Translations under genes and position numbers: made by a program | Notes under the pieces: generated by a model | What the model was told of the DNA's origin: nothing | The model's database searches: none | The model's input: the letters and a program-made list of their open reading frames with translations, nothing else | Assembly: GCA_002402965.1 (NCBI GenBank) | Contig: DHGW01000049.1 | Location: forward strand, 3,692 to 67,691 | Direction of reading: 5' to 3' | Origin: Bacteroidales bacterium UBA4788 | GTDB taxonomy: Bacteria; Bacteroidota; Bacteroidia; Bacteroidales; VadinHA17 | Length of the DNA stretch: 64,000 bases | Shown here: positions 5,973 through 47,923 of the stretch, piece after piece | Numbering within the stretch: position 1 is the first letter of the stretch | Layout: each line of letters opens with the position of its first letter

Positions 5973-6088
5973 CGACAGATAATTTTGTGACGTAAAGTAA
6001 ACAATAATGACATTTACTTCTTGATTTTAACTTAACTTTAATGATCTTTACTGTCGCCGTAACGAAAACAAATAAATGCTAAATAAAT

Positions 6089-7708
6089 ATGCAGAAACTC
6101 TTATTACTTGGAGATGAGGCTATTGCACAGGCTGCCCTGGATGCTGGTCTGAGCGGCATGTATGCCTATCCGGGTACGCCATCAACAGAGATAATGGAGT
6201 ATATCCAGGCCTCCCAACAGGCAGCTTCGGACAGTGTGCACAGGGAGTGGTCTTCAAATGAGAAGACCGCCATGGAAGCTGCACTGGGTATGTCATATGC
6301 CGGCAAGAGGGCCATGGTGGCCATGAAGCATGTAGGGCTGAATGTTGCTGCCGATGCCTTTATCAACTCGGCTGTGACTGGTGTGAATGGAGGCCTGGTG
6401 GTTGTTGCGGCAGATGATCCTTCGATGCACTCTTCTCAGAACGAGCAGGACTCACGTTTTTACGGAAAGTTTGCACTGGTTCCCGTCATGGAGCCGCGAA
6501 ACCAGCAGGAGGCTTATGACATGATCTTTGATGCCTTCGCTTTATCTGAGAAATTCAGGCTGCCGGTCCTGTTCAGGATTACGACGCGCCTGGCTCACTC
6601 AAGGTCAGCAGTAGCCAGAAGGGAGAAGACCATGCAGAATACCCTCTCCCTGCCGGGCAATCCACGTCAGTTTGTACTTCTGCCGGCTATAGCACGGAAG
6701 CAATACAGGGCGCTTACGGGTATATACGAGACACTTCGAACTGATTCAGTGCTGGATGGTCATAACAGGCTCCTCGAGGGCAAAGGCAGAGGTACGGGTA
6801 TCATTGCGTGCGGTATTGCTTTCAACTACCTGATGGAGAACATAGGTGATAACTACGGTGATTATAATATACTTTCAGTCGGGACCTATCCCCTGAACAG
6901 GGATAAGGTGGCAGCCCTGGTCGGCAGGTGTGACAGGGTGCTGGTCCTTGAAGATGGCTATCCCATGATAGAGGAGCATCTGAGGGGTTTGCTAGACAGG
7001 GATGTCACTGTGCTCGGACGCCTGGATGGTACAGTGCCACGTGATGGTGAGCTGAATCCTGCAATCGTGGCGTCAGCCCTGGGCCTGAAATCCACCTGCG
7101 GCAGGGATGTGCCATCGCTGGTACGTCAACGTCCACCATCTTTCTGCAAGGGGTGCGGTCATGCGGATCTCTATTCCGCCCTGGCCGAGGTGATGGCTGA
7201 AGCAGGACCTGGGCGGGTATTCTCCGACATAGGTTGCTATACCCTTGGAGCACTGCCTCCTTACAATATGGTCAACTCCTGTGTTGACATGGGAGCCTCG
7301 GTCACAATGGCAGTAGGCGCTGCCGATGCCGGACTTTTTCCGGCAGTGGCAGTCATTGGCGACTCCACCTTTACCCACTCGGGAATGACCGGGCTGCTCG
7401 ACGCTGTGTTAAAAGACTCTCCCATAACACTCATCATTTCAGACAACTCCACCACCGGTATGACTGGCGGACAGAAGTCGCAGGCTACAGACAGGCTGGA
7501 AAGCATCTGTCTGGGAATCGGGGTTGATCCTGCTCATCTGAAGGTGATTGTGCCACTCAGGAAGAACCATGAGGAGAATAAGTCAGTTATCGGCGCCGAG
7601 CTGAAACATAATGGTCTTTCGGTAATACTTGCGAGGCGGGAGTGCATTCAAACAGCATCACGAAACAAAAAGGCCGAAGCGGCAGAGAAAAACAAATCCG
7701 GGGAATAA
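6089..7708 (+). CDS. iorA: Indolepyruvate:ferredoxin oxidoreductase alpha subunit (TPP-dependent)
   Basis: The N-terminus (LLGDEAIAQAALDAG...YPGTPSTEI) and the FCxGCGH TPP-domain motif are typical of IorA. It is immediately followed by an iorB-like gene. Confidence 0.8.
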   Translation: MQKLLLLGDEAIAQAALDAGLSGMYAYPGTPSTEIMEYIQASQQAASDSVHREWSSNEKTAMEAALGMSYAGKRAMVAMKHVGLNVAADAFINSAVTGVNGGLVVVAADDPSMHSSQNEQDSRFYGKFALVPVMEPRNQQEAYDMIFDAFALSEKFRLPVLFRITTRLAHSRSAVARREKTMQNTLSLPGNPRQFVLLPAIARKQYRALTGIYETLRTDSVLDGHNRLLEGKGRGTGIIACGIAFNYLMENIGDNYGDYNILSVGTYPLNRDKVAALVGRCDRVLVLEDGYPMIEEHLRGLLDRDVTVLGRLDGTVPRDGELNPAIVASALGLKSTCGRDVPSLVRQRPPSFCKGCGHADLYSALAEVMAEAGPGRVFSDIGCYTLGALPPYNMVNSCVDMGASVTMAVGAADAGLFPAVAVIGDSTFTHSGMTGLLDAVLKDSPITLIISDNSTTGMTGGQKSQATDRLESICLGIGVDPAHLKVIVPLRKNHEENKSVIGAELKHNGLSVILARRECIQTASRNKKAEAAEKNKSGE

Positions 7709-7709
7709 C

Positions 7710-8285
7710 ATGAAATGTGATATTATATTGGCAGGTGTAGGCGGACAGGGTATCCTCTCCATAGCCGCCACGATTGGTCTAGCAGCCGTTGAGCAGAATC
7801 TGTTTCTGAAGCAGGCCGAGGTACATGGCATGAGCCAGAGAGGTGGTGACGTGCAGTCACATCTGAGGCTCTCAGACAGGGAGATCTGGTCCGACCTGAT
7901 CCCGCATGGAGGGGCTGATCTGATCATCAGTGTTGAACCGATGGAGGCATTGCGTTACCTCCCGTGGCTCTCCTCAGGGGGCTGGATCGTAACCAGTTCT
8001 GTTCCCTATGTGAACATCCCCGACTACCCTGAGGCTGGCAAGGTGCTTGCGGAGCTTGACAGGGCTGGCAACACAATTGTACTTGATGCGGATGGCATTG
8101 CCAGGGATCTGGGATCGGCAAGATCTGGCAACATGGTAATCCTCGGTGCGGCATCATCATTCATCTCAATGCCGTTCACATCGTTGGAGAATGCCGTCAG
8201 AAAGATGTTCAGCCGCAAGGGTGAGGAGGTTGTGGCTGTCAATCTTAAGGCATTGCATGCCGGCAGGGATGCTACGGGCAGATAA
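7710..8285 (+). CDS. iorB: Indolepyruvate:ferredoxin oxidoreductase beta subunit
   Basis: The N-terminus is MKCDIILAGVGGQGIL... I chose the ATG at 7710, 2 nt after the iorA stop, rather than the longer track ORF starting at 7629, which overlaps iorA. Confidence 0.8.
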   Translation: MKCDIILAGVGGQGILSIAATIGLAAVEQNLFLKQAEVHGMSQRGGDVQSHLRLSDREIWSDLIPHGGADLIISVEPMEALRYLPWLSSGGWIVTSSVPYVNIPDYPEAGKVLAELDRAGNTIVLDADGIARDLGSARSGNMVILGAASSFISMPFTSLENAVRKMFSRKGEEVVAVNLKALHAGRDATGR

Positions 8286-8493
8286 CGGATGCTGGCACAA
8301 TTGCGTCCAAACCAACGACAGCAGACAGTTGACCGGGGGCCAGCTGATTATCCGGGCATCATTTCAGTCACCCGGGTTCCGCGGACAGCAAACAGGCCCC
8401 GGCACACTACCGGGACCTGCCAGCGAGACATCCATACATCACCACCCGACCCCACAGCCATTATGGTCTGCCTGAGACGGTCCCTGTACCGGC

Positions 8494-8934
8494 TTACTTG
8501 CCCCGTCCCTTACCTCCGCGACCGGCAGGATCGCTGCCGGTGACAGGTTCCACCTCATGATCCGGTTCAGGTTCACCGGTTATCAATTCCCGTGACCTGT
8601 TTCCCGAGCTGAGCATCACCAGGTCTGAAGCCACGATCTCTGTGACATTCTTCTGGTTGCCGTTCTTGTCTGTGTAGCTGCGGTAGCTTATCCGTCCCTC
8701 AATGCAGACCTCCCTTCCCTTGCTGAGAAACTTCGAGGAGAGCTCGGCAAGTCCGTTCCACGCTACGATGCTATGCCAGGTGGTCTCATCGATTTTGGCA
8801 CCGTCAGCATTCTTGTAACTCTCATTCGTTGCGAGATTGAAGTGAGCTACCTTCTTTCCGCTCTCAAGCGTTCTGATCTCCGGATCCTGTCCCAGGCGAC
8901 CGATCAGTTGTACCCTGTTTCTTAATGCATTCAT
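8494..8934 (-). CDS. ssb: Single-stranded DNA-binding protein (OB fold) lacking the canonical acidic C-terminal tip
   Basis: The N-terminal OB-fold sequence is NRVQLIGRLGQDPE...TTWHSIVAWN...GRISYRSY. The C-terminus ends ...GRGGKGRGK instead of a D-D-(I/L)-P-F-type tip. Confidence 0.85.
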   Translation of the reverse strand: MNALRNRVQLIGRLGQDPEIRTLESGKKVAHFNLATNESYKNADGAKIDETTWHSIVAWNGLAELSSKFLSKGREVCIEGRISYRSYTDKNGNQKNVTEIVASDLVMLSSGNRSRELITGEPEPDHEVEPVTGSDPAGRGGKGRGK

Positions 8935-9018
8935 GACCTTTTGTTTTTAGTTAATAATGCTGTTAACGGTACAAATTTGCACCCTCTCCGGCACATGATC
9001 CGGTTATTAATCATTTCT

Positions 9019-9057
9019 ATCCGTTTAGCAGTCGTTTATATCCGTTTGAAAACGGAT
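9019..9057. promoter_or_regulatory. Candidate operator: three phased CCGTTT-type direct repeats plus an 18-bp palindrome
   Basis: The cores are CCGTTT at 9021, TCGTTT at 9032 and CCGTTT at 9042, spaced 11 and 10 bp apart. The last core forms the perfect palindrome ATCCGTTT-GA-AAACGGAT at 9040-9057. The site lies in the divergent ssb / Zn-ribbon-gene intergenic region. Confidence 0.35.
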
Positions 9058-9114
9058 TACAGAATAAGAATCAGACTGATATGAGATCTTGAAATGTATA
9101 TTTTATTTATCTTT

Positions 9115-9507
9115 ATGAAAACATTCGCTGTGGAAAGAGTATGTCTTGACTGCGGAGCCAGGCTCCTTGGACGGTCTGATAAGAAATTCTGTTCCGATCA
9201 GTGCCGCAACAACTACAATAACCGTATTAACCGTGATCAGAACAATTATGTTCGCAATGTGCACGCCCAGCTCAGGCGCAACAGGAAAATTCTGTCCGAT
9301 CTGCTTGATGACGGCCATCACCGTATCCACCGCGATGCCCTGATAGCCCAGGGATACAATTTCACATTCTTTACGCACCTTGTGGAAACAAGGGAAGGAA
9401 CAAGGTGGTCATACTGCTTTGAGTATGGCTTCCATGAGACTGAAGAGGGCTATCTTGAGCTCCGGTTGTGCAGCAGTTACCTCGAGATGCCCGTGGAGGA
9501 GGAGTGA
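9115..9507 (+). CDS. Hypothetical protein with an N-terminal Zn-ribbon (CxxC...FCSDQC)
   Basis: The motif CLDCG...KKFCSDQCRNNYN resembles small Zn-ribbon proteins. The start is ambiguous between the ATG at 9094 and the ATG at 9115. Confidence 0.5.
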   Translation: MKTFAVERVCLDCGARLLGRSDKKFCSDQCRNNYNNRINRDQNNYVRNVHAQLRRNRKILSDLLDDGHHRIHRDALIAQGYNFTFFTHLVETREGTRWSYCFEYGFHETEEGYLELRLCSSYLEMPVEEE

Positions 9508-9632
9508 ACCGGGAACGGATACCAGGGGAAAAGTTATACTGTGTCCGGGATATCCTGAACATCCGAATGATATTTGACAACTGTTAAGTGTTACAGGATT
9601 TTTGTAGTTTTGGGGCTCAAACGAAACGGATT

Positions 9633-10163
9633 ATGAAAAGAACTGTTCTATTGGCAGCCATACTATTGTTGGGATTCACTGCAGGATTACACGGGCAAAA
9701 GGTATACGAACATAATTACTTTGTGAAGGTTGGTGATACCGCACCTGATTTCACCATAAAAGAGGCGGGAGGGACAAGCTATAAGCTTTCAGACCTCCGT
9801 GGTAAGGTTGTTATGCTGCAGTTCACTGCCAGCTGGTGCAGCGTCTGCCGCAAAGAGATGCCCTTCATTGAGGAGGAGATATGGATTCCAGGGAAGAAGC
9901 AGGGACTGGCAGTCATCGGCATAGATCGTGATGAGCCAGAGGCAACGGTGAAGAAGTTTGCCGCAGACATGAAGATAACATATCCGCTGGCTCTCGATCC
10001 GGGAGCAGATATTTTCGGCCTGTTTGCAGAAAAGCAGGCAGGTGTGACCCGCAATATAATTATAGACCGGAATGGCAAAATAGTATTCCTGACCCGCCTT
10101 TTCGAGCGCGAAGAGTTCGATAAAATGAAGGAAATCATCTTCTCGGAACTCGCTAAAAAGTAA
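9633..10163 (+). CDS. TlpA-family thiol:disulfide oxidoreductase (thioredoxin fold), exported
   Basis: A signal peptide starts at MKRTVLL. It has a WCSVC active-site motif in a thioredoxin-like context. I chose the internal ATG at 9633. Confidence 0.8.
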   Translation: MKRTVLLAAILLLGFTAGLHGQKVYEHNYFVKVGDTAPDFTIKEAGGTSYKLSDLRGKVVMLQFTASWCSVCRKEMPFIEEEIWIPGKKQGLAVIGIDRDEPEATVKKFAADMKITYPLALDPGADIFGLFAEKQAGVTRNIIIDRNGKIVFLTRLFEREEFDKMKEIIFSELAKK

Positions 10164-10260
10164 AAAAAAGAGCCTCTTTATCTGTTTCTGTGCAACCTTT
10201 GGCCTGTTTATTGCGTTTATCAGGACAGCAACTACTGTTCTTAAACTAAAACTGAGAGAA

Positions 10261-10881
10261 ATGAAAAAGTTCATTGTCATTGTTCTTGCACTTGTTCTTG
10301 CCGCACCGCTCTTTTCACAGGTAAAATTCGGCCTGAAGGCCGGGGCAAGTACTGACTTCACCTTTACCAGCCTCAATCTGTCCCAGGCAAATGTTGATGT
10401 AATTCTTCAGAATGCCAAAACTGCAGAATGGGGATTCCAGGGAGGCGCTTTCCTGAGAGTATCATTTGCTGGATTCTACCTTCAGCCTGAGTTTTTGCTG
10501 GCTACTGCAACAAACTCCATGACCTATGAAGGTGTGATTGATGGACAGCCTGTAGATGAGCTGCTCGAACAAAAATTTACAAAACTTAATATCCCGGTTC
10601 TCCTTGGTTTTAAACTGGGACCATTGAGGGTTAATGCAGGCCCGGCTGCTTCGATTCTGCTTTCCGAACCGTCGGATATGGCTGATATTGCTACCTACAA
10701 AACAGCTGCATTCGGTTACCAGGCAGGCGTTGGATTGGATATCTTCAAGAAGCTCACCCTTGATCTTCGCTACGAAGGAAATCTCAACCAGTTTGGAGAC
10801 GGGATTACAATAGGAGGAGAAGAATTCGAGTTTGACGACAGGACAGGTGCCATCCTGATCCATGTGGGGCTGATATTCTGA
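10261..10881 (+). CDS. Small outer-membrane beta-barrel (porin-family) protein
   Basis: It has a signal peptide, an alternating beta-strand pattern, and a C-terminus ending ...HVGLIF with a terminal Phe. Confidence 0.65.
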   Translation: MKKFIVIVLALVLAAPLFSQVKFGLKAGASTDFTFTSLNLSQANVDVILQNAKTAEWGFQGGAFLRVSFAGFYLQPEFLLATATNSMTYEGVIDGQPVDELLEQKFTKLNIPVLLGFKLGPLRVNAGPAASILLSEPSDMADIATYKTAAFGYQAGVGLDIFKKLTLDLRYEGNLNQFGDGITIGGEEFEFDDRTGAILIHVGLIF

Positions 10882-13480: not shown

Positions 13481-14629
13481 TTAGTTCTCAGGCGTGTAGC
13501 TATTCAGAGATTCGATAATTCTTCTGGCATTGATGGCATTGTCGGCCACTTCTGAAAGAAGGTGGCTGCGCTGTTTTATTTGCTCATCCGTAAACTTTTG
13601 CTTCATGAGCCTGTCAGTGATGGTGAGCCAGTCCTCCGGCTCAAGGGCGATGTTACAGAGACTCCCGAGGTTCGTTCCGGCGACAACTGCCGGTGATGCA
13701 ACTACGTGACGGCCATTGCATAGCGCATTGATCAGTTTTAGCTTCATCCCGGTGGGCTGTGATGCATTGAGCAGGCATACCTGTGCGTTGGCTATCAGCT
13801 CATTCATCTGGTTCATTGAGGGATTGGAAACCATCTTAACATGCCTGAGTGATGCGGCGACGCCTGACAACTCTGCTGAGGGTCTTTTGCCGGCAATGAC
13901 TGTTCTGTGCTTCCATTTTGGTGCCACCTCCTTCAGGATATAAAGGGCTGCGGCGTTATTCTCTGCTGTGGAGAAGTCGCCGTGCATCAGCACATAATCA
14001 CCAATACCTTCAATTGCACAGCACCCGTCACCCGGATGGAAAGGTCCGATAAAGACCGCATTGCCGTACCTTGAGCTGAAGTATTCCGTGTCTCCGGGAG
14101 AGATGGAAAGCAGGTAAGAGGCATCGGCAAGCCTGGGCTCATAACGCTCCAGTTTTCTGGCCTCTGAATTGTAATAGTATTTTCTGAAGGGGTTCTTTTC
14201 GGTCGAAGCCAGATTACGGTAGTAGACATGCTCGATATTGTGCGTCCTGACCATGGTTATCCTTCCTGCCAGGGCTGGATCATCAAGATAATGCGTAGTG
14301 TGCAGCCCCTCGAAAATGATTGGGTTATTATCGGTGCTCAGGTTTTTCAGAAGCAGGTTGTTCTTCCTGGAGAGGACGATGAATGGCTCCCTGCGGAAAA
14401 GATGAAAGAGGTTTAGCTCACGCCTGTAATAATGCACCCTGAGACATTCTCGCTCCAAAGTACGCGAACGGCTCCGGCCATAACTGAAGCAGTGAAGGAT
14501 CACACCGACACCCTGCTTCTTCAGTGCGGAGATCTTATAGAATACATCAATTATGCCGCCATAATCAGGCGGGTATGGAATATTGAAACTTACGAGGTGT
14601 ACTATCCTGTTGCCGGGGGTTTTGTCCAT
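13481..14629 (-). CDS. Glycosyltransferase (GT-B fold, family 1/4-like)
   Basis: The N-terminal motif is IVHLVSFNIPYPPDYGGIIDV. I chose the internal ATG at 14629; the longer alternative starts at 14707. Confidence 0.65.
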   Translation of the reverse strand: MDKTPGNRIVHLVSFNIPYPPDYGGIIDVFYKISALKKQGVGVILHCFSYGRSRSRTLERECLRVHYYRRELNLFHLFRREPFIVLSRKNNLLLKNLSTDNNPIIFEGLHTTHYLDDPALAGRITMVRTHNIEHVYYRNLASTEKNPFRKYYYNSEARKLERYEPRLADASYLLSISPGDTEYFSSRYGNAVFIGPFHPGDGCCAIEGIGDYVLMHGDFSTAENNAAALYILKEVAPKWKHRTVIAGKRPSAELSGVAASLRHVKMVSNPSMNQMNELIANAQVCLLNASQPTGMKLKLINALCNGRHVVASPAVVAGTNLGSLCNIALEPEDWLTITDRLMKQKFTDEQIKQRSHLLSEVADNAINARRIIESLNSYTPEN

Positions 14630-14733
14630 GAAGAGTAAAAACAATGTACAAACATAGCTAAAAAAAATTCTTTTGTATCTTTCATCCGTCCTGATAACCT
14701 GAAACATTCAGGAAGTATTCCAGCAAACAGACA

Positions 14734-16223: not shown

Positions 16224-17687
16224 ATGAAAACCAATCGCAGGAATTTCCTTCGTACTGCAGCAGTAGCCGGGGCCGGCACTATTACTGCAGCCTCTGTGGC
16301 CTCATGCTCCCGCCGTGATAAGCCGACTGAAGCCATGCCTTTTGTCAGTGAGGCAGTCAGGGCCAGACATACCCAGAGTTTCAACATGTCAGGTTACGCA
16401 GCACCGCCACTGGAGAAAGTGCGCACAGCTTTTATCGGACTCGGTATGAGGGGTCCTGGTGCCGTGGAGCGTATGGCCCACATCGAGGGTGTGGAGATAG
16501 GCGCACTGTGCGACAAGTATCCCGACAGGGTGGAAAAGGTTCAGGCGATTCTTGCCAAGTTCGGTCTCCCGCGGGCAAAGAGTTTCAGTGGAAGTGAGGA
16601 GGCATGGAAGGGAGTCTGCGATGACCCTGACATTGACCTGGTGTACATCTGCACACCGTGGGAGTGGCATACACCCATGGCGGTCTATGCCATGGAGGCT
16701 GGCAAGCATGTGGCGGTGGAAGTGCCGGCAGCAAAGACGGTTGATGAATGCTGGCAGCTGGTGGAGGTGTCAGAACGCACGAAGCGGCACTGCATGCAGT
16801 TGGAGAACTGTTGTTATGATTTCTTCGAACTGCTGACCCTGAATATGGCCCGGCAGGGGCTCTTCGGTGACATCGTCCACGGAGAAGGGGCATATATTCA
16901 TGACCTGCGCTGGGACTTCACCTATGACAAGAACGGCTATGCCGATATGTGGAGACTGAAAGAGAATGTGCGCAACGGGAATCTCTATCCGACCCACGGT
17001 CTGGGACCGGTATGCCAGGTAATGAATATCAACAGGGGCGACAGGATGGAATACCTTACATCGCTCTCCACAAACGACTTCGCCATGGGTCCGGATCTTG
17101 AGCAGTTAGCCAGGGAGGACCCGTTTTATACTCCTTTTGCAGGAAAGACATACCGTGGAAACATGAACACTACGCTCATCAAGACAAATCTCGGCAGGAG
17201 TATCATGATTCAGCATGACGTCTCCAGTCCGAGACCCTATTCGAGGATTCATCTGATAAGCGGCACCAAGGGATGCGCCAGGAAGTGGCCCTCGCCTGCC
17301 AGGATAGCCCTTGGCCACTCATGGCTGCCGGCAGAGAAAATGGCAGAGATTGAGGCACTGCACACACCGGAGATCGTAAAGAGGGTGGGAGAGATGGCAA
17401 AGGCTATCGGTGGTCATGGCGGTATGGATTTCATAATGGACTGGAGGCTGACCGATTGCCTGCGGAACGGCCTTCCGCTCGACCAGGATGTCTATGATGC
17501 CGCCCTCTGGAGCGTTATAACCCCGCTCAGCGAATGGTCCGTCGCCAACAGGTCAGCTTCGATCGATGTGCCCGACTTTACCTGCGGAGCATGGAAGGCT
17601 AATGCCCCCTTCGATCCGAATCTCCCGGCAGGAGGAAACACAAGGGTTCTTAAGCCGCAGGGAAGTGAATCCCAGCTTGAGGTTTAA
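16224..17687 (+). CDS. TAT-exported Gfo/Idh/MocA-family NAD-dependent oxidoreductase, GH109-like
   Basis: It has a twin-arginine signal (NRRNFLRTAAVAGAG), a Rossmann GxGxxG-like motif (GLGMRG), and a size and architecture typical of glycoside hydrolase family 109-like proteins. Confidence 0.7.
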   Translation: MKTNRRNFLRTAAVAGAGTITAASVASCSRRDKPTEAMPFVSEAVRARHTQSFNMSGYAAPPLEKVRTAFIGLGMRGPGAVERMAHIEGVEIGALCDKYPDRVEKVQAILAKFGLPRAKSFSGSEEAWKGVCDDPDIDLVYICTPWEWHTPMAVYAMEAGKHVAVEVPAAKTVDECWQLVEVSERTKRHCMQLENCCYDFFELLTLNMARQGLFGDIVHGEGAYIHDLRWDFTYDKNGYADMWRLKENVRNGNLYPTHGLGPVCQVMNINRGDRMEYLTSLSTNDFAMGPDLEQLAREDPFYTPFAGKTYRGNMNTTLIKTNLGRSIMIQHDVSSPRPYSRIHLISGTKGCARKWPSPARIALGHSWLPAEKMAEIEALHTPEIVKRVGEMAKAIGGHGGMDFIMDWRLTDCLRNGLPLDQDVYDAALWSVITPLSEWSVANRSASIDVPDFTCGAWKANAPFDPNLPAGGNTRVLKPQGSESQLEV

Positions 17688-17733
17688 ATCCACCTTTGCG
17701 GCAGATAAACTGATTTAAAGAATATTCAGGTAA

Positions 17734-17750
17734 TATATTTTTTACATTTG
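17734..17750 (+). promoter_or_regulatory. Candidate Bacteroidota sigma-A -7 box (TAcaTTTG) for the hyf-like operon
   Basis: The sequence is TATATTTTTTACATTTG. The TAnnTTTG match at 17743-17750 ends 20 nt before the ATG at 17771. I saw no clear -33 TTTG at the consensus spacing. Confidence 0.35.
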
Positions 17751-17770
17751 CGGGCAAATTCCCGCTTCAG

Positions 17771-19765
17771 ATGTTCAGCACCGTTACTTTTTTGATCATT
17801 TTGCTTTTAACGTTGCTGGTCTTCGCGATTCCTAAACCGCTGAAGTACCACTACACGCTGGGGTTGCTGGTTGCAGGAACGGCACTGACCACCGCCTGGA
17901 GCATCAGTGTGCTGACAGGGACGGAAATATTAAAGGAGATTCCCCTGTTCACGCCCGCTGCCGGCAGCCGTTTTGTTCTGGTAATCGATCCCCTGTCTGC
18001 ATTCTTCATTCTTGTAATCAATATTACAGTACTTATCGGGTTCCTCTATGCCAGAGGCTATCTCGCACCATATGGACAGAGGATGAATGCCCTCCGCTTT
18101 TCGATACATTACTTCTCATACCTGTGGCTCTGGCTGTCGATGCTGATGGTGGTAATGATACGCGACGGCCTTCCGTTCCTGATTGTATGGGAGATAATGG
18201 CCCTCTCATCCTTCTTCCTGGTAATCTTTGACGCGGAGGAGAGGAGTATCATGAAGACCGGCATAAGCTACCTGATCCAGATGCACGTCGGGATGTTCTT
18301 CATCCTGGTGGCCTTCCTGCTGCTTCAGAATGAGACCGGAAAGATGAGCTTCGATGCTCTGGGAGAATACTTCTCCGTGCATCGCAACCTGCCGCTCTTT
18401 CTTCTTTTCTTTGCCGGGTTTGCCATCAAGGCCGGTTTTATTCCGCTCCACACATGGCTTCCGGAGGCGCATCCCGCTGCCCCGTCACATGTCTCAGGGG
18501 TGATGTCGGGAGTGATGATCAAGATGGGAATTTACGGTATTTTACGGGTACTGATTCCGATGCAGTCTGACCTGCTGGAGACCGGTGTCATCATCCTTGT
18601 TGTCTCGTTAATCTCAGGTATTATGGGAGTGATGATGGCTATAGTGCAGCATGACCTGAAGAGGCTGCTGGCCTATCACAGCATAGAAAACATTGGCATC
18701 ATCGGCATCGGGTTAGGCCTGGGGGTGATAGGACAGGCCCTCGGTAATCCGGCGCTTGCCCTGCTGGGATTCTCAGGTGGAATCCTGCATATTCTGAATC
18801 ACTCCCTCTTCAAGTCACTGCTCTTTTTCAATGCCGGATCTGTGTATCATGCCACCCACACCCGCAATATGGAGCAGTTGGGAGGAGTGATGAAGAGGAT
18901 GCCGTGGACTGCCATGCTGTTCCTGACAGGTTCACTGGCCATATGCGGTCTGCCTCCCTTTAACGGCTTTATCTCGGAATACCTGATATATATGGGGATG
19001 TTTAACAGCCTCTCCGGAGCGACACTCTTTCACTCCATAATGATAGTGGGATCTGTTGCATCGTTGTCACTCATAGGAGGACTTGCCATCTTCTGCTTTA
19101 CCAAGGCCTTCGGGGTGGTCTTTCTCGGCGAGCCGCGGTCTGAGGCTGCAAGACATGCCGGCGAGGTCAGTGGCTCCATGATCATCCCACAGCTCTTTAC
19201 CGTGGCTCTGATACTGCTCATCGGGTTGGGCTCGCCATTGGTGGTGAAGCCGGTTTTTAACATCGTTACCCGGGCCTGGAACCTGGGCGGCCAGCCAATG
19301 ATCACCGGAGCCTTTACCTCCAACCTGTCACAGATAAGCATTGCCGGAGGAGTTTTTGTCGTCACCCTTGCAGTACTGCTGCTATACCGCAGGTACCACC
19401 TCAGCCGCAGGAACGTTACGGCCGGTCCTACATGGGGGTGCGGCTACACTGCTGTTACTGCCAAACAACAGTATACGGCCACCTCGTTCGCCTATAACTA
19501 CAACCACCTGGCCAAACCGGTGCTGCAAACACGGAAGGAAATTGACGAGATAGGGGAGAGCGAGATTTTTCCGCGGAGGAGGAAATTCGTTTCGCACAGC
19601 GATGACCTCTTCAGGAAGTATCTGATAGACAGGCCTGTGGATTTGGTCGCCGGGTTGCTCAAGAGAATCGCTGTGATGCAGACCGGGCAGATAAGGCATT
19701 ATATTCTCTATGCATTTGTATTCATGCTGCTGGTACTGCTGCTGGCAATGTTCAATATACTGTGA
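17771..19765 (+). CDS. HyfB / NuoL-like antiporter-type membrane subunit
   Basis: 664 aa and polytopic. It carries Mrp/NuoL-M-N family motifs: WEIMAL, AIKAGFIPLHTWLPEAHPAAPSHVS and HSLFKSLLF. Confidence 0.8.
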   Translation: MFSTVTFLIILLLTLLVFAIPKPLKYHYTLGLLVAGTALTTAWSISVLTGTEILKEIPLFTPAAGSRFVLVIDPLSAFFILVINITVLIGFLYARGYLAPYGQRMNALRFSIHYFSYLWLWLSMLMVVMIRDGLPFLIVWEIMALSSFFLVIFDAEERSIMKTGISYLIQMHVGMFFILVAFLLLQNETGKMSFDALGEYFSVHRNLPLFLLFFAGFAIKAGFIPLHTWLPEAHPAAPSHVSGVMSGVMIKMGIYGILRVLIPMQSDLLETGVIILVVSLISGIMGVMMAIVQHDLKRLLAYHSIENIGIIGIGLGLGVIGQALGNPALALLGFSGGILHILNHSLFKSLLFFNAGSVYHATHTRNMEQLGGVMKRMPWTAMLFLTGSLAICGLPPFNGFISEYLIYMGMFNSLSGATLFHSIMIVGSVASLSLIGGLAIFCFTKAFGVVFLGEPRSEAARHAGEVSGSMIIPQLFTVALILLIGLGSPLVVKPVFNIVTRAWNLGGQPMITGAFTSNLSQISIAGGVFVVTLAVLLLYRRYHLSRRNVTAGPTWGCGYTAVTAKQQYTATSFAYNYNHLAKPVLQTRKEIDEIGESEIFPRRRKFVSHSDDLFRKYLIDRPVDLVAGLLKRIAVMQTGQIRHYILYAFVFMLLVLLLAMFNIL

Positions 19766-20679
19766 CTATGGCAGGATTTATACTGATAGTGGTTGCAGCA
19801 TTCTTCTTCCCGGGGATCATCCTCAGGACGAAGAGCCTCGCTTCGGGGCGGAAGGGGCCGGGCATATTCCAGCCGCTGAAGGATATAGTCGTGCTCTTCA
19901 GAAAGGGAAGCGTCTTCAGCAATACCACCGGGATTATATTCCGCATAGCGCCTTCAGTAACGCTGGCAACAGTGTCAGGCGCCATGCTGCTGCTTCCCTT
20001 CGCAGAACAGAAGGCGGTGATCTCCTTCGAGGGCGACTTTATCTTTTTCGCATACCTGCTGGCTCTTGGGAAGTTCTTTACAATCATTGCCGCGCTGGAT
20101 ACGGGCAGCAGCTTTGAAGGTATGGGCGCAAGCCGTGAGGCTCTCTTCTCTATGCTCGTTGAACCGGCATTCTTTGTGCTGCTGGCAACCTTCGCCATGT
20201 TCACGGGGTATACGTCATTCTCCGTGATTTTCAACCACTTTTATGTCACTGGAAATGATTACGTATTGATTTATAGTATTATAGGTGCGTATCTTTTTGT
20301 GCAGATCGCCATGGTTGAAAACAGCCGGCTCCCGGTTGATGACCCGAAGACACACCTGGAGCTGACAATGATCCATGAGGTAATGATACTTGACTACAGC
20401 GGTTTCGACAAGGCTCTCATACACATTGGGACATACCTGAAATTTGCCATTTACGGATCTCTGATCTATAACCTGGTAGTACCGGCGGGGTGGAATATCA
20501 TGTTGCAGATCGGGCTTTTCGTGGCCGTTCAGGGTTTATTTGCCGTAGTGATTGGTTTTACGGAATCGTTCAGGGCAAGGAACAAGATGAACAAGAACCC
20601 GAAATTCATTTTAACCCTGTCGGCGATTGCACTCATAGCATTTATAGTGATACTGATACTGACTGATAAACTTGCCTGA
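19762..20679 (+). CDS. HyfC / HycD / NuoH-like membrane subunit
   Basis: 305 aa and polytopic. The loop ENSRLPVDDPKTHLEL...DYSG matches the NuoH/HycD ExxRxPxD...EL...EYSG pattern. The start is either the GTG at 19762, which overlaps the upstream stop, or the ATG at 19768. Confidence 0.8.
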   Translation: MTMAGFILIVVAAFFFPGIILRTKSLASGRKGPGIFQPLKDIVVLFRKGSVFSNTTGIIFRIAPSVTLATVSGAMLLLPFAEQKAVISFEGDFIFFAYLLALGKFFTIIAALDTGSSFEGMGASREALFSMLVEPAFFVLLATFAMFTGYTSFSVIFNHFYVTGNDYVLIYSIIGAYLFVQIAMVENSRLPVDDPKTHLELTMIHEVMILDYSGFDKALIHIGTYLKFAIYGSLIYNLVVPAGWNIMLQIGLFVAVQGLFAVVIGFTESFRARNKMNKNPKFILTLSAIALIAFIVILILTDKLA

Positions 20680-20686
20680 AAGCATT

Positions 20687-21301
20687 ATGGTAAACTATCT
20701 CATAGTACTGTTTGCAATCACACTGATGTACTTCGCTTCGGCAGAGAGGCTGACAACCTATGTCAGGCTCGTGGCGCTCCAGGGTCTTCTGCTCTGTGGC
20801 ATTGCTGTGTTTGAGCTGAAGGAGGTCAACCTGGCGAATCTGCTCTTCATCGTGGCAGAGACACTGCTCTTCAAAGCAGTGGTGCTGCCTTACCTTCTCA
20901 GCCGGATAATAAGAAAGTCGGGAGTGACGAAGGTGCACCGCCAGGCTGTCCCGGGCTTCTACCTTCTGCTGTTTTCAATTGCCGGGTTGGTTGTAAGCGT
21001 AATCCTTGCAACGATCCTGGTAAATCCATTCATCAACCCGATTTACCTGGCGATTGCTCTTTTCACACTATTCACCGGGCTTTTGCTGATTGTCACTCAT
21101 AAGCTGATCATTTCCCATTTGATCGGTTTCCTGGTTGTGGAAAACGCTGTATTTCTCTTTTCACTGGCGATAGGTAATGAGATGCCGATGCTCATCAACG
21201 TCGGCATCTTACTTGACCTTTTCGTGGGTGTTCTGATACTTGGTTTTTTCGGGTTAAGGCTCAAACCCCACACGAATGAGCTTACGATGTTAAAAGATTA
21301 G
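20687..21301 (+). CDS. HyfE / NuoK-like membrane subunit
   Basis: About 204 aa and polytopic, with a membrane-embedded Glu in VVENAVFLF. I preferred the ATG at 20687 over the TTG at 20672. Confidence 0.7.
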   Translation: MVNYLIVLFAITLMYFASAERLTTYVRLVALQGLLLCGIAVFELKEVNLANLLFIVAETLLFKAVVLPYLLSRIIRKSGVTKVHRQAVPGFYLLLFSIAGLVVSVILATILVNPFINPIYLAIALFTLFTGLLLIVTHKLIISHLIGFLVVENAVFLFSLAIGNEMPMLINVGILLDLFVGVLILGFFGLRLKPHTNELTMLKD

Positions 21302-21303
21302 CG

Positions 21304-22731
21304 ATGATGTTGTTGCTTTTCTTCATACTATCAATAGCGCTGAGTGGCGCGACGCTCCTTTCCCGTGACAGGACCGTCACGAAGGCTATTGCACTGGCCT
21401 TTGCAGCGATGCTCATCGCTGTCACGGTGCATGCCTGGATTAACACCGGCAAAACTGAACTGATATATTTTACTTATGACAGCACGGCTGTACTGCTTCT
21501 TTCGGTGCTGGCGCTGCTAACGATGCCCACAGTTTACCACGGGTTCATCTATACGCGTGACGATGCGGTAAAAAAATATAATATCTACCACTCCGGGCTG
21601 ATCGCGCTTATGACCTTCATGGCAGGAGCCTACCTGGCAAATACAATGACGGTCCTATGGATATTTGTGGAGGCCACCACCCTGGCGGTTGCTGTGCTCA
21701 TCTATCATGACCGGACAGAGATGTCCCTGGAAGCTACATGGAAGTACGTATTCATCTGTTCCACAGGTATTGCACTTGCCTATCTGGGCATACTCTTCCT
21801 CGGGTTCATCAATGGCAGGGGTGACGCACCCAACCTCTCCTTCTCATCATTCGGCCTTGTGATCAGCAACGCCGACCCGATGTACCTGAGGATAGCCTTC
21901 ATATTCGTGCTGGTGGGATTCAGCACAAAGATGGGTCTCTTTCCGATGCATACCGTCACAATAGACGCTCACTCTGTGGCGCCTCCGCCGGTGAGTGCCC
22001 TCATCTCAACCACCCTCATGAACGTCGGATTCCTGGCCATATACAGGGTTTATACACTCTTCTCATCCACCTCAGTGCTGCCCTTCATGAATCATGTGCT
22101 GGTGCTGGCGGGCCTGCTTTCACTTCTCGTCTCCGCGGGCTACATGCTCAAGGCGAAGCACCTGAAGCGCATGCTTGCCTACTCGAGTCTTGAGAATATG
22201 GGCCTGGTGGCCATAGCCCTCGGCACCGGGAAATATGGATATTATGCGGCGTTACTGCTGATCGTGCTGCATTCACTAGCCAAATCAAGCCTGTTTTACC
22301 AGATGGGGCAGCTTTCGAGGATACTGCACACCTTCAGGCTTGACGAGAGTGGCAGGTACATGAAGCTTTACCCGGCTGGAGCAATGGTCCTGCTGACGGG
22401 TATGATCTGCATCCTGGCCATCCCTCCGTCAGGGATGTTCATATCGGAATTCCTGATTTTCAAGGCTATGGTCAGTAACGGCCAGTGGTTCGTTCTGGCG
22501 ACAACCATTATCCTGCTCTGCTTCGTCATTTACGCAATGAGCACGAGGATAATGCATGTCAATTTCTCCTCCCCGCGAAACGGTACTGAGCTGAAGATGC
22601 CCGGCAAAGTAAGTCCCGCCGAGACTGTCAGCCAGTTCGTTCTGCTTACACTGGTAATCATGATCTGCTTTTACCAGCCGCCATTTCTGGTTACCCTGAT
22701 CAATAATAGTATAGCCCTGCTTCCCAGATAG
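21304..22731 (+). CDS. HyfF / NuoN(M)-like antiporter-type membrane subunit
   Basis: 475 aa. Its motifs are FVEATTLAV, FSTKMGLFPMH...DAHSVAPPPVSAL and HSLAKSSLF. Confidence 0.8.
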   Translation: MMLLLFFILSIALSGATLLSRDRTVTKAIALAFAAMLIAVTVHAWINTGKTELIYFTYDSTAVLLLSVLALLTMPTVYHGFIYTRDDAVKKYNIYHSGLIALMTFMAGAYLANTMTVLWIFVEATTLAVAVLIYHDRTEMSLEATWKYVFICSTGIALAYLGILFLGFINGRGDAPNLSFSSFGLVISNADPMYLRIAFIFVLVGFSTKMGLFPMHTVTIDAHSVAPPPVSALISTTLMNVGFLAIYRVYTLFSSTSVLPFMNHVLVLAGLLSLLVSAGYMLKAKHLKRMLAYSSLENMGLVAIALGTGKYGYYAALLLIVLHSLAKSSLFYQMGQLSRILHTFRLDESGRYMKLYPAGAMVLLTGMICILAIPPSGMFISEFLIFKAMVSNGQWFVLATTIILLCFVIYAMSTRIMHVNFSSPRNGTELKMPGKVSPAETVSQFVLLTLVIMICFYQPPFLVTLINNSIALLPR

Positions 22732-22736
22732 AAAAG

Positions 22737-24257
22737 ATGAGCAGCAACTTATATACAGAAGTAAGGAACGGATCAGGTCCGGTTGGGATCAGGGAGATCC
22801 CGGTACTTGATTACGGCCGTTTTTATGAAGAGGTCATAAGTCTGCTTGGCAATGAGCGATACCACTGTCTGACCTACTTTTGTTACCCTGCGGGACCGGT
22901 CCTGAAGTTTATCTGCTGTATCGCCGATGACGGATCCGGGACGATCAGGATACTGAGCCACGAAAAAAGTGATGACGGAGCCCCGCTGCGCTCACTGACA
23001 GAGTCATGTTACGCGATGCATATCTTTGAGCGTGAGATACATGAGAACCATGGCGTGAAGTATGATGGGCATCCCTGGCTGAAGCCGGTGAGGTATCCGC
23101 ACGACAGGGCTGACCGGCAGAATGTAATGGCCAACTATCCCTTTTATGAGATGGAGAGTGAGGAGCTTCACGAGGTGGGGGTGGGGCCCATTCATGCCGG
23201 TGTGATTGAGCCTGGTCACTTCAGATTCATCTGCAACGGAGAGAAGGTGCTGCATCTGGAGATACAGCTTGGTTACCAGCACCGGGGGATTGAAAAGCTC
23301 TTTGCTGATGAAGTTGATGGGCTGCGCCGTGCGATGCTGGCGGAAAATATTGCAGGTGACACAGCTGTTGGTCACGGGCTGGCCTATGCCCAGCTTGCTG
23401 AGTCGCTTGCCGGATACATGCCTTCCGGTTCACTGCAGGCGGAGAGGTGCATCGCACTTGAGCTGGAGCGTATCGCCGTACATATTGGAGATACAGCTGC
23501 ACTCTGTGGCGATGTGGCTTATCAGCTGGGTCAGGTGGCATCCGAGGCGCTGAGGACCGTGGTTATAAATACAACGCAGAGCTGGTGCGGTAACCGGTTC
23601 GGAAAAGGATTGATTCGCCCGGGCGGGACAAATTTTCCTCTCGATGAAGAGATAGCCGGAGAGTTACTCAGGAACCTTGAGGTGGTTGACAGACGGTTCG
23701 GTACCGTGACTGACTGCGTCTACACCCTGCCCAGCGTCCTGGGACGGTTTGAGGAGATAGGCACAGTCACACGTGCCCAGGCAATTGCAATTGGCGCCGT
23801 CGGAATGGTGGCGCGCACCTGCGGGGTGCCGAGGGACACACGTGCAACTCACCCCTTCCAGTATTACAGGCAAATGGCGATCACGCCGGCAATGCAGGAG
23901 AACGGAGATGTGCTGGCGCGGGGGATGCTGAGGGCACTTGAGGTAAAGGAATCGGTGAAGATCATCCGCAGGCTGCTGGATGAGTGGCGGGCAGGAGAAA
24001 AGACAAGCGGACGACCCCGCTATGACCTCAGCTTCACTCCTGATAGTCTGGCGATCTCTGTAACTGAGGGTTGGCGAGGGGAGATCTGTCATGTGGCAGT
24101 CACCGACGGCGACGGCCGACCGGTGCTGTGGAGGATCAAGGACCCTTCAATGCACAACTGGATGGCATTGGCCCTGGCAGTACGCAACCAGGAGATATCT
24201 GACTTCCCGGTATGCAACAAGAGCTTCAATCTTTCATATTGCGGCAATGATTTGTAA
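22737..24257 (+). CDS. NuoC-NuoD fusion / HyfG-HycE-like large subunit lacking the [NiFe] cysteine ligands
   Basis: The N-terminal 30-kDa (NuoC-like) part is fused to a NuoD/large-subunit core (VGPIHAGVIEPGHFRF...LEIQLGYQHRGIEKL). The position of the CGxCxxxH motif reads AGDTAVGH (23352-23375). The C-terminus reads DFPVCNKSFNLSYCGNDL, with no DPCxxC motif. Confidence 0.8.
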   Translation: MSSNLYTEVRNGSGPVGIREIPVLDYGRFYEEVISLLGNERYHCLTYFCYPAGPVLKFICCIADDGSGTIRILSHEKSDDGAPLRSLTESCYAMHIFEREIHENHGVKYDGHPWLKPVRYPHDRADRQNVMANYPFYEMESEELHEVGVGPIHAGVIEPGHFRFICNGEKVLHLEIQLGYQHRGIEKLFADEVDGLRRAMLAENIAGDTAVGHGLAYAQLAESLAGYMPSGSLQAERCIALELERIAVHIGDTAALCGDVAYQLGQVASEALRTVVINTTQSWCGNRFGKGLIRPGGTNFPLDEEIAGELLRNLEVVDRRFGTVTDCVYTLPSVLGRFEEIGTVTRAQAIAIGAVGMVARTCGVPRDTRATHPFQYYRQMAITPAMQENGDVLARGMLRALEVKESVKIIRRLLDEWRAGEKTSGRPRYDLSFTPDSLAISVTEGWRGEICHVAVTDGDGRPVLWRIKDPSMHNWMALALAVRNQEISDFPVCNKSFNLSYCGNDL

Positions 24258-24276
24258 ATAAACTAATTGCGGAGAA

Positions 24277-25029
24277 ATGCTAAAAGAAATCAAGATACTC
24301 GCCGATCACGGAAAACAGTTTGTGCCCGATCTCCGGAATCAGCCTGTCTCTGCCCGTTTCAGGGGAAGGCCGGTAATCTCCGAGGATATTACATCAGAGC
24401 AGGCGGAGAAGGCTGCGGCAATGTGTCCGGCTGGTGCAATTGACAGGCGCAGCGGCGCTACTGACCTTGGCAGGTGCACCTTCTGTAACGAGTGTGCACT
24501 GATGCTGCCCGGGGTGTACCGTTTTACAAATGACTACCGTATTGCTGCAACAAGAAGAGAAAGCCTCGTGGTTAAGCCGGGCCAGTCAGATCAGCTCAGG
24601 ATTGACGAGACCGCAGTAAGAAAAGAGATTCGCAGGCTCTTCAGAAGGTCTCTCAAACTGCGCCAGGTCTCTGCCGGAGGGGACAACTCTTGCGAGATGG
24701 AGCTTGGGGCAGCGGGAAACGTAAACTTTGATATGGGCAGGTACGGTATTGAGTTCGTGGCCTCGCCCCGTCATGCCGACGGCATTGTGATCACCGGACC
24801 GGTATCTGCCAATATGGCTGAAGCTCTTGAAATTTGCTACGACGCTACTCCTTCACCAAAGGTTATAATCCTCGTCGGCACCGATGCCATCAGCGGCGGG
24901 CTCTTTGCCGGCAGCCCTGCGGTGAAGAGGAATTTCATAGAAAATCATCACATTGATCTTTACTTGCCGGGCAACCCGGCTCATCCGCTGACATTTATCA
25001 ACGGGGTGATGGACCTGCTTAAGCTTTGA
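24277..25029 (+). CDS. Fusion of a one-cluster ferredoxin remnant with a NuoB/HycG-like subunit lacking most Fe-S ligands
   Basis: The N-terminal part has C50-P plus C67xxC70xxC73. The complementary cluster positions are S40, A43, A46 and L77. The NuoB-like core is FVASPRHADGIVITGPV, but its ligand positions read GGDNSCE, GTDAISGG and PGNP, where homologs have CxxC, GxCxxxGG and PGCP. Confidence 0.75.
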   Translation: MLKEIKILADHGKQFVPDLRNQPVSARFRGRPVISEDITSEQAEKAAAMCPAGAIDRRSGATDLGRCTFCNECALMLPGVYRFTNDYRIAATRRESLVVKPGQSDQLRIDETAVRKEIRRLFRRSLKLRQVSAGGDNSCEMELGAAGNVNFDMGRYGIEFVASPRHADGIVITGPVSANMAEALEICYDATPSPKVIILVGTDAISGGLFAGSPAVKRNFIENHHIDLYLPGNPAHPLTFINGVMDLLKL

Positions 25030-25143
25030 GTCTGCTGTCCTAAATATACTGATCGCAGGTTGGAATTGGGGAAAATATGGAATCTGCCTTCCTGAACGGG
25101 GCTTTTTACTACCTTAGTTACTTCATTGCAACAACACTGTAAT

Positions 25144-46561: not shown

Positions 46562-46727
46562 GTTTGCCTGATTTATTGCTGCGGGACAGCTCCACTAAAA
46601 TAAGATAAAATATTTGTATATTGGCTCATTCACCTTAGGCTGCTGTCAGAAGAATAAAGGTTATTTATCAACATCCGCAGCCGGGGAAAATCAGAAGCAA
46701 TCAAAACAAAACGCCAAGACTTAATTT

Positions 46728-47909: not shown

Positions 47910-47923
47910 AAAGTAATAAAATC

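Follow-up and report, generated by a model that had tools for sequence, protein, structure and literature searches.

A six-gene Ehr-type operon of a Bacteroidales bacterium without the ligands of the NiFe site and of the proximal [4Fe-4S] cluster

Subunits and cofactor sites of the operon

The 64,000-nucleotide stretch of contig DHGW01000049.1 of Bacteroidales bacterium UBA4788 that was analysed here as a whole (hereafter the window) carries an operon of six open reading frames (ORFs; g1 to g6, Table 1) on the + strand, which fill positions 17771-25029; neighbouring ORFs either overlap (by 4 or 8 nt) or are separated by 2, 5, or 19 nt. On identical public contigs, ATG starts at 19768, 20687, and 21304/21307 yield the same six genes with gaps of 2, 7, 2-5, 5, and 19 nt. 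The ORFs and the Pfam and NCBIfam matches confirmed the arrangement described in the initial annotation, namely six same-strand genes with gaps of no more than 19 nt in a Hyf/Nuo-type order. All six subunits of a complex of the Ehr (energy-converting-hydrogenase-related) class are encoded here and maintained by selection; the class is defined as group 4 hydrogenase-related, without the NiFe cysteines and of unknown function (PMC6349859, PMC10284858, PMC7894505, PMC5037454). Its product is very probably a functional Ehr-type complex that has neither the NiFe site nor the proximal cluster.

Among the NCBIfam models, HyfB and HyfF were the top matches of g1 (562 bits against a cut-off of 667) and g4, respectively, and g3, for which no Pfam match was obtained, hit the HyfE model NF008556 at 2.2e-12. 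Every NCBIfam match, including those to NuoD (153 against 360) and NuoB (83 against 116), scored under its curated cut-off, and the six proteins are claimed by no curated family. The tblastn identities to Escherichia coli proteins were 35.5% for HyfB, 37.5% for HyfF, 31.5% for HyfC, 32% for HyfI, and 25% for HycE.

The membrane arm has kept every canonical charged residue of the proton pathways. In g1, the Glu of transmembrane helix (TM) 5, the Lys of TM7, the central Lys, and the Glu of TM12 (E-K-K-E) form the HyfB pattern and were invariant in 54 of 54 orthologues, and the charged residues of g4 follow the HyfF pattern with no exception in 66 of 66. Moreover, the motifs DTGSSFEGMGASRE (DTGSxFxGxGASRE), VEP, and DYSG are retained in g2, and g3 has an invariant membrane Glu and Asp in alignment with HyfE. 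The coupling loop between TM5 and TM6 of g2 reads PVDDPKTHLELTMIHE where HyfC, HycD, and NuoH have PFDxxEAEQEL, one Glu being exchanged for Lys and one for His. A dependence of this exchange on cluster loss was considered and rejected; the loop is a signature of the clade, because relatives that keep the proximal cluster share it.

The profile of the large subunit g5 matched HycE (7z0s_E, 141 bits) and MbhL (6CFW_L, 130 bits) in the PDB ahead of NuoD of complex I (at most 108 bits), with a weak match to MbsL (64.5 bits); the PDB copy searched contained no Ehr structure. The AlphaFold2 model of g5 (predicted local distance difference test score, pLDDT, 82; predicted template modelling score 0.87) had 7z0s_E as its best Foldseek match (template modelling score 0.78), and superposition of this predicted structure on HycE confirmed the NuoC-NuoD fusion fold. 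The ligand columns were read from pairwise HMMER alignments against HycE, MbhL, Nqo4, MbhJ, and HycG and, by a second route, from MAFFT alignments with E. coli HycE/HyfG/NuoCD and HycG/HyfI/NuoB and 70-80 orthologues. The two routes agreed in placing no Cys in the NiFe columns and a single Cys in the proximal columns. The columns of HycE C241, C244, C531, and C534 are occupied by A206, T209, S500, and G503 of g5 and were non-Cys in 70 of 70 orthologues, so that the earlier statements that both N-terminal NiFe cysteines and the DPCxxC motif are gone, and that the complex is of the Ehr type and not a hydrogenase, were borne out.

At the N-terminal NiFe motif, the two former Cys columns read A/V/S and T/S across the 70 orthologues, Gly207 and Asp208 between them are invariant, and the AGD motif is common to cluster-containing relatives. 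A feature overlooked in the initial annotation is the invariant C-terminus of g5, DFPVCNKSFNLSYCGNDL, in which Cys493 and Cys502 did not vary among 56 homologues; relative to HycE C534, Cys502 is displaced by one column towards the N-terminus, Cys493 precedes it by nine residues, and both are also found in cluster-containing relatives. There is no CxxC near either former NiFe motif. The last residue of g5 aligns with Arg537, at which HycE itself ends once HycI has processed it, and nothing is therefore left to cleave. The beta1-beta2 loop of g5 is hydrogenase-like, its HycE counterpart being GPLHVTSDEPGHFRL, and the complex I quinone ligand columns hold Gly in place of Tyr87 and Ile157 in place of His38 of Thermus thermophilus Nqo4. 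In the predicted structure, residues 135-157 and 490-506 fall under pLDDT 50, and the geometry of Cys493, Cys502, and Asp208 is thus unreadable. In summary, g5 has the HycE fold without the NiFe ligands, and we infer from these columns that the complex cannot make or use H2.

The small subunit g6 had MbhJ and HycG as its top PDB matches and a weak match to MbsJ (45.8 bits). The columns of HycG C48, C51, C115, and C145, which are also those of the four MbhJ ligands, hold D136, C139, D203, and N233; the NiFe and proximal columns are anchored by the flanking motifs GGxNxCExE, GxxxxSGG, and PGxP, and three independent alignments agree on them. The replacement of three of the four NuoB/HycG cluster cysteines, as initially annotated, was reproduced with the form D-C-D-N in 72 of 80 orthologues, the other forms being D-T-D-N, D-A-D-N, and D-C-E-N. 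The sole remaining Cys was replaced in 2/80 orthologues and is not kept in sister lineages (DTDN, DNDH, and DVEA). When 80 cluster-less small subunits were compared with 13 cluster-containing ones, the only non-conservative group-specific changes were Cys to D136, Cys to D203, and Cys to N233, and 73 positions were conserved and common to both groups. With one Cys left, the proximal cluster cannot form, and we know of no precedent for an iron-sulfur site of one Cys, two Asp, and one Asn. A cluster re-ligated between subunits by cysteines of g5 was considered and rejected, given that these cysteines are equally conserved in relatives with their own four ligands, and that the only lineage-specific ones, C44 and C269, do not both occur in the window protein.

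The first 100 residues of g6 can be aligned with HycF, HyfH, and NuoI; of the two CxxCxxCxxxCP motifs, motif 1 retains only its fourth Cys and motif 2 its first three, and together these form one four-Cys site (C50, C67, C70, and C73) that read CCCC in 80 of 80 orthologues. This agrees with the earlier observation that a one-cluster remnant takes the place of a separate HycF/NuoI subunit. According to the ligand assignment in MbsN, these four cysteines bind the medial cluster (PMC8165549), and the surviving site of g6 is accordingly predicted to be the medial one, with the distal cluster gone. Judged from the alignments, g6 is a fusion of adjacent hycF- and hycG-type genes in which one of three clusters is kept. 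The AlphaFold2 model of g6, based on a 56-sequence alignment, had an overall pLDDT of 56 with only the ferredoxin domain confident (85-94), and is unusable for distances.

Public annotations name these proteins 'Ni,Fe-hydrogenase III large/small subunit' or 'NADH:ubiquinone oxidoreductase', as would be expected if the ligand columns had been misaligned and the operon encoded a true group 4 [NiFe] hydrogenase or a variant of complex I. However, the agreement of the anchored alignments, the lack of any CxxC near either NiFe motif, the absence of hyp and hycI from the 64 kb, and NCBIfam scores that all stay under the cut-offs leave this reading next to no credibility; in addition, tblastn with the E. 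coli Nuo proteins gave only B-, CD-, H-, and L/M/N-type matches in the window and no NuoA, J, I, E, F, or G, and the Tyr and His quinone ligands of complex I are replaced. Neither the four NiFe cysteines nor the four proximal-cluster cysteines of group 4 [NiFe] hydrogenases are present as a set. In MBS/Mbx, catalysis takes place at a proximal cluster with three Cys ligands, two NiFe cysteines persist as vestiges, and an Mrp module is present (PMC8165549); the window has a single cluster site only.

Table 1. Coordinates of the operon genes, their signature motifs, and other features of the window; the last row gives coordinates within two actinobacterial loci.
Feature	Position	Strand	Description
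g1	17771-19765	+	664 aa; HyfB/NuoL-like antiporter-type membrane subunit, EhrA-like; PF00361 at 4.6e-53
g2	19762-20679	+	305 aa (303 aa from ATG 19768); HyfC/HycD/NuoH-like membrane anchor of the peripheral arm, EhrB-like; PF00146 at 8.3e-29
g2 TM5-6 coupling loop LPVDDPKTHLELTMIHEVMILDYSG	20329-20403	+	Nearly invariant in the family
g3	20672-21301	+	209 aa (204 aa from ATG 20687); HyfE-like small membrane subunit, EhrC-like; NF008556
g4	21304-22731	+	475 aa; HyfF/NuoN-like antiporter-type membrane subunit, EhrD-like; PF00361 at 7.6e-41
g5	22737-24257	+	506 aa; NuoC-NuoD fused large subunit, HycE/HyfG-like, EhrL-like; PF00329 and PF00346
g5 beta1-beta2 loop GVGPIHAGVIEPGHFRF (coupling loop 2)	23178-23228	+	15/17 residues invariant, 56 homologues
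g5 AGDT, former N-terminal NiFe motif (HycE C241-G-I-C244)	23352-23363	+	Cys to Ala and Thr
g5 C-terminal signature DFPVCNKSFNLSYCGNDL and stop	24201-24257	+	Former DPCxxC region, by alignment to HycE
g6	24277-25029	+	250 aa; HycF/NuoI remnant::HycG/NuoB-like fusion, EhrS-like; PF01058 at 1.2e-19, Fer4_13, Fer4_15
g6 ferredoxin-like domain	24358-24576	+	C50 24424-24426, C67 24475-24477, C70 24484-24486, C73 24493-24495
g6 former proximal [4Fe-4S] site	D136 24682-24684, C139 24691-24693, D203 24883-24885, N233 24973-24975	+	By alignment to HycG and MbhJ
SusC-like receptors	2869-5292		
2-Oxoacid:ferredoxin oxidoreductase, two genes	6089-8285	+	Indolepyruvate IorA/IorB type
GH109-like gene	16224-17687	+	Twin-arginine (TAT) signal, GFO/IDH/MocA and GH109_C; alpha-N-acetylgalactosaminidase-like
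TTTGCGG copies	17694-17704, 17746-17757		+ strand; about 50 nt apart in the spacer before g1
TACATTTG	17743-17750	+	In the 83-nt spacer before g1
Terminator-like hairpin and T-run	25086-25102	+	After the g6 stop (25029), before the start of the M49 peptidase (25126)
C25 (gingipain-like) peptidase	38744-42502	-	1252 aa; CARDB, type IX secretion system (T9SS) Por_Secre_tail
Aldo/keto reductase, then DUF6599 protein	46728-48766	+	C-terminal 4Fe-4S dicluster domain on the reductase
Actinomycetota cluster-less Ehr-like operons	L102 5249-12948; L103 5290-12825		NuoH-, HyfE-, HyfF-like, large, small, HyfB-like

Conservation, relatives, and repeated loss of the proximal cluster

The operon is under purifying constraint throughout, with pairwise ratios of nonsynonymous to synonymous substitution (dN/dS), at dS of about 1, of 0.088 for g1, 0.057 for g2, 0.048 for g3, 0.069 for g4, 0.113 for g5, and 0.084 for g6. 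More than 120 clusters (90% identity) contain sequences at least 73% identical to g6, and relatives are encoded in 328 species-representative genomes, the best 80 of which are all uncultured Bacteroidales or Rikenellaceae-labelled metagenome-assembled genomes (MAGs) from soils, fens, sediments, and digesters. Wherever a related locus is long enough to cover the whole operon, the order of the six genes is unchanged. The six reading frames are intact in the window and in most of 80 loci, and even with relatives at only about 40-50% identity g5 has 134 conserved positions in common and g6 73. A decaying, functionless relic of a hydrogenase or Ehr operon would account for the loss of the two cofactor sites that define the relatives and for the defects in four loci (L029, L043, L068, and L073), in which g1 is missing or g5 or g3 is split or truncated; these defects may reflect real gene decay in some lineages or frameshifts introduced during long-read MAG assembly. 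With dN/dS between 0.05 and 0.11 for all six genes, intact frames, hundreds of species carrying the operon, and the positions conserved with distant relatives on the other side, a relic is very improbable.

In six loci (L036, L038, L043, L046, L076, and L078, at about 3500-10750), g5 and g6 are 54-58% and 67-72% identical to their counterparts in the window, respectively, and the membrane genes 41-58%, whereas other loci of similar g5 and g6 divergence have membrane genes 62-80% identical to those of the window. This sub-lineage looks like a case of mosaic evolution or membrane-module exchange.

A database of 1.84 billion sequences, each representing a 50%-identity cluster, yielded 3864 matches, and the ligand columns were scored in the best 150. 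The nearest full-length relatives outside the family carry either D-T-D-N, at 52-55% identity, or C-C-C-C with the same fusion, at 44-51%. In 15 metagenomic C-C-C-C loci, the gene order, the AGD motif and CNKSFxLSYCGNDL signature of the large subunit, and the NuoH-type loop are the same, and named members come from Cloacimonadota, Wallbacteria, Nannocystis, Nitrospirota, and Methanomassiliicoccales. The cluster-containing sisters (L087-L098) resemble the window operon in gene order, in the fusion with one ferredoxin-type cluster, and in the NuoH-like loop DDPxTHLELTMxHE; they keep four proximal cysteines, that is, a two-cluster wire, where the window has Asp, Cys, Asp, and Asn. The fusion architecture, which had been regarded as distinguishing, therefore does not single out this operon: the fusion and the single ferredoxin cluster are clade-wide, because the C-C-C-C relatives share both. 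On these alignments, the window operon can be placed as a derived member of a widespread NiFe-less clade.

Nor is the Bacteroidota host distinguishing, as had likewise been proposed, since the cluster has been lost in Actinomycetota and Chloroflexota as well. The profile of a second cluster-less group, with Streptosporangiaceae and Acidimicrobiales as its named members, returned 120 proteins, which read D-E-D-S in 98/120 and have a Cys in the four columns in 0/120, with the medial-cluster cysteines kept in 119/120. The actinobacterial operons (Table 1) have the same six subunit types as the window, with the fused ferredoxin::NuoB subunit, the medial cluster kept and the proximal one absent, but their gene order is circularly permuted (H-E-F-L-S-B), and the large subunit carries a different NiFe-less motif, ER(T/V)EGxASVAH, and no C-terminal Cys. 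In a rough neighbour-joining tree, cluster-containing lineages separate the actinobacterial from the Bacteroidales cluster-less group, which suggests independent loss of the proximal cluster in Actinomycetota and Bacteroidales. The cluster-less form in Chloroflexota is unfused and reads D-A-A-D. Across 22 cluster-less representatives, two or three of the four columns are Asp or Glu in 18, against a background of about 6% for at least two acidic residues; Asp occupies column 1 in 18 of them, and column 3 is acidic (Asp or Glu) in 16. The Mycobacterium tuberculosis 'EHR' genes Rv0082-Rv0087 are said to be related to the actinobacterial group (PMC6728331) and may belong to it.

Genomic surroundings

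The initial annotation had reported no maturation, endopeptidase, formate dehydrogenase, CO dehydrogenase, or NuoEFG-type genes, and the same result was obtained here. With tblastn, the E. coli proteins HypA-E, HycI, HycB, HyfA, and NuoE/F/G found nothing credible within the 64 kb, and Pfam scans of 40 flanking ORFs (17-59077) revealed no maturation, formate or CO dehydrogenase, or NuoEFG-type genes. A 40-aa HypC match at 13665-13781 (-), with an E-value of 5e-4, lies inside a glycosyltransferase ORF (13481-14707) and was set aside as chance, as was a NuoI match at 46709-46819 (E-value 0.002). Among the six operon proteins there were no MrpB/C/E/F/G-type Pfam matches and only two PF00361 subunits. 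Furthermore, no partner oxidoreductase adjoins the operon in the window, in cluster-containing relatives, or in the actinobacterial form.

The flanking ORFs are ordinary Bacteroidota housekeeping genes, including SusC-like receptors, a T9SS-tailed C25 peptidase, ExbBD/TonB, PHO4, and glycosyltransferases. The C25 peptidase and the SusC-like receptors speak for an origin of the window in Bacteroidota. A homologue of the GH109-like gene directly upstream of g1 (58-89% identity) precedes the operon in most related loci, an unusually persistent association that is probably plain synteny, because the enzyme is periplasmic. This protein and the M49 peptidase encoded downstream were both considered as partners and rejected as syntenic but periplasmic or unrelated. 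A producer of reduced ferredoxin, the two-gene 2-oxoacid:ferredoxin oxidoreductase, is encoded 9.5 kb upstream of the operon, and the aldo/keto reductase with a dicluster domain further downstream is an unusual redox fusion.

In the spacer before g1, TACATTTG fits TAnnTTTG, the Bacteroides -7 promoter consensus, and it or the TTTGCGG copies may be the promoter or operator of the operon. A scan for promoters and terminators gave counts not above those of shuffled sequences, with a sigma-70 model that is ill-suited to Bacteroidota. The terminator-like hairpin after g6 is consistent with the end of the operon, although such sites are no commoner in the region than in shuffles.

Mechanism and comparison with known complexes

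How the chemistry of a pocket in the peripheral arm drives distant ion translocation is a central question for the relatives of complex I and hydrogenases, and the role of Ehr has been unknown since 2005. About 14 Å is the generally accepted limit for physiological electron tunnelling. In all characterised complex I-like enzymes, three clusters with edge distances under 12 Å lead to a pocket under the proximal cluster (PMC8165549). In the window complex, the surviving cluster would lie two hops from that pocket, farther than this limit, so that no iron-sulfur chain could deliver electrons there, and a wire from ferredoxin to the pocket is very unlikely on this distance argument. Nevertheless, the pocket, the two coupling loops, and the proton pathways are better conserved than any other part of the complex: Asp208, Cys493, and Cys502 in the pocket are near-invariant, as are the beta1-beta2 and NuoH-type loops, which argues that the coupling of pocket to membrane is still in use. 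The favoured explanation is that the complex translocates ions, most likely H+, through a conformational cycle not driven by electron transfer from ferredoxin to a substrate, and would act as a secondary device coupled to an ion gradient. The remaining medial cluster may serve as a structural or redox-gating cofactor, and the two or three carboxylates could keep the negative charge of the lost cluster (-2/-3), or bind a cation, at the coupling site. The proposal of the initial annotation, a mechanistically distinct machine that is redox-independent or driven through its single cluster, is a reasonable inference. Taken as a whole, with identity and mechanism blended, the favoured explanation has about an even chance of being correct; a mechanism without electron transfer, considered by itself, is tentative and somewhat short of even.

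Several points weigh against this explanation. The complex has no MrpB/C/E/F/G-type Na+ module, so simple Mrp-like Na+/H+ exchange is not obviously possible, and a proton-only device without energy input would be a leak. The same pocket occurs in relatives with a two-cluster wire, implying redox chemistry there and possibly here by another route, and electrons may still matter, given that two independent cluster-less lineages have strictly kept the medial cluster. Moreover, the distance argument is drawn from homologous structures, the AlphaFold2 model of g6 being poor, and the hyp search covers the 64-kb window only.

The main alternative is a pump that is still redox-driven, in which the Asp/Cys/Asp/Asn site binds another redox metal (e.g., mononuclear Fe), or both redox partners diffuse into the pocket, such as menaquinol by way of the NuoH-type channel and, as a substrate acting on Cys493 and Cys502, a disulfide, polysulfide, or thiol. 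It would account for the invariance of Asp208, Cys493, Cys502, and both coupling loops, identical to those of the relatives with a two-cluster wire, and for the strictly retained medial cluster; two or three carboxylates with Asn, Ser, or His make a plausible cation-binding set, and MBS reduces S-S bonds without a NiFe site (PMC8165549). On the other hand, sister and parallel lineages have Thr, Ala, Val, Ile, Asn, or Glu where the proximal-site Cys stands, and there is therefore no conserved redox ligand set; the equivalents of the quinone ligands Tyr87 and His38 are Gly and Ile, no partner enzyme is encoded nearby, and neither metal nor substrate can be inferred from sequence alone. We regard continued redox drive as somewhat unlikely, although a serious competitor.

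The pocket can also be read in a third way, with an ion gradient driving a non-redox reaction, similar to vectorial CO2 hydration by DabAB or cyanobacterial CupA, and with Cys, Asp, and His as a new catalytic or Zn site. The former NiFe pocket contains Asp208, Cys502, Cys493, and a mostly conserved His213, all invariant or nearly so; both the coupling loops and, without its electron wire, the membrane arm are intact. The Cys2-Asp-His sites of beta-carbonic anhydrases and DabA may offer an analogy. However, the same pocket is present in relatives with the proximal cluster, a better fit to redox chemistry, the sequence and fold do not resemble those of carbonic anhydrases, and the Cys-bearing C-terminal tail (490-506) is modelled at pLDDT below 50, and a non-redox pocket reaction is thus improbable.

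A broader reading holds that the electron wire has been dispensed with at least twice, in Bacteroidales and Actinomycetota and in a further form in Chloroflexota, with two or three carboxylates taking the place of the proximal cluster each time and strong selection continuing on the proton pathways, the coupling loops, and the Cys/Asp pocket, giving an 'unplugged' class whose surviving cluster would be a redox gate and whose cycle could be driven by an ion gradient, a bound cation, or a diffusible pocket substrate; this generalisation is speculative and rather doubtful. If true, a new functional class would stand midway between the Mrp antiporters and the redox-driven pumps and provide a natural experiment on the contribution of the N2/proximal cluster to coupling. 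The window operon, its Bacteroidales orthologues, and the parallel actinobacterial clade offer matched natural pairs, which have otherwise near-identical signatures and differ in having the proximal cluster or carboxylates in its place, and the comparison of a cluster-containing with a cluster-less member would show whether the membrane arm and coupling loops work without the wire, which is feasible because Nannocystis, with the cluster-containing form, is cultured. In view of the public hydrogenase and complex I annotations, Bacteroidales of sediments, peat, and digesters may be wrongly credited with H2 evolution or an extra complex I in metabolic reconstructions.

Among known systems, the window clade fits the published Ehr definition, the Ehr of Geobacter having been compared by subunit names only. 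In Geobacter sulfurreducens, EhrA-B-C-D-L-S (GSU0739-0745), with a NuoL-like EhrA, a HyfE-like EhrC, EhrL, and EhrS, matches the order in the window by name (PMC7894505), and likewise has a large subunit without CxxC NiFe motifs and no maturation or partner genes in the operon. Unlike the Geobacter Ehr as described, the small subunit of the window also lacks the proximal [4Fe-4S] ligands. The accessible literature, which did not cover the founding papers of Coppi 2005 and Marreiros 2013, makes no mention of proximal-cluster loss in Ehr; the class itself is known, and the new element is the clean removal of the proximal cluster, its priority being unverified.

The closest characterised relatives are the hydrogenase-4/formate hydrogenlyase (FHL)-2 (HyfA-J) and FHL-1 (HycB-G, 7Z0S) complexes of E. 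coli, with which the shared genes are in the same order. Unlike these, the window has no HyfA/HycB, HyfD, separate HyfH/HycF, HyfJ/HycH, FdhF, hyp, or hycI, and its complex lacks the NiFe ligands, the proximal cluster, and the distal cluster of the HycF-like domain. The peripheral-arm modules of Pyrococcus furiosus MBH (6CFW) and MBS/Mbx (6U8Y) are homologous to those of the window, and MBS is a precedent for a NiFe-less member that still conserves energy; MBH and MBS combine a three-cluster chain with an Mrp-type Na+ module (PMC8165549), whereas a single cluster remains in the window complex and Mrp B/C/E/F/G-like genes are absent. With complex I, the operon shares NuoB, C, D, H, and L/M/N homologues, a NuoK-like element, and the Glu/Lys proton pathways, but not the N2 ligands or the quinone ligands Tyr87 and His38. 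Finally, the Mrp (Mnh/Pha) antiporters have MrpB, C, E, F, and G and no NuoH, NuoD, or NuoB homologues, the opposite set to that of the window, yet they work independently of redox chemistry with NuoL/M/N-like subunits and thereby provide a functional analogy for the favoured explanation.

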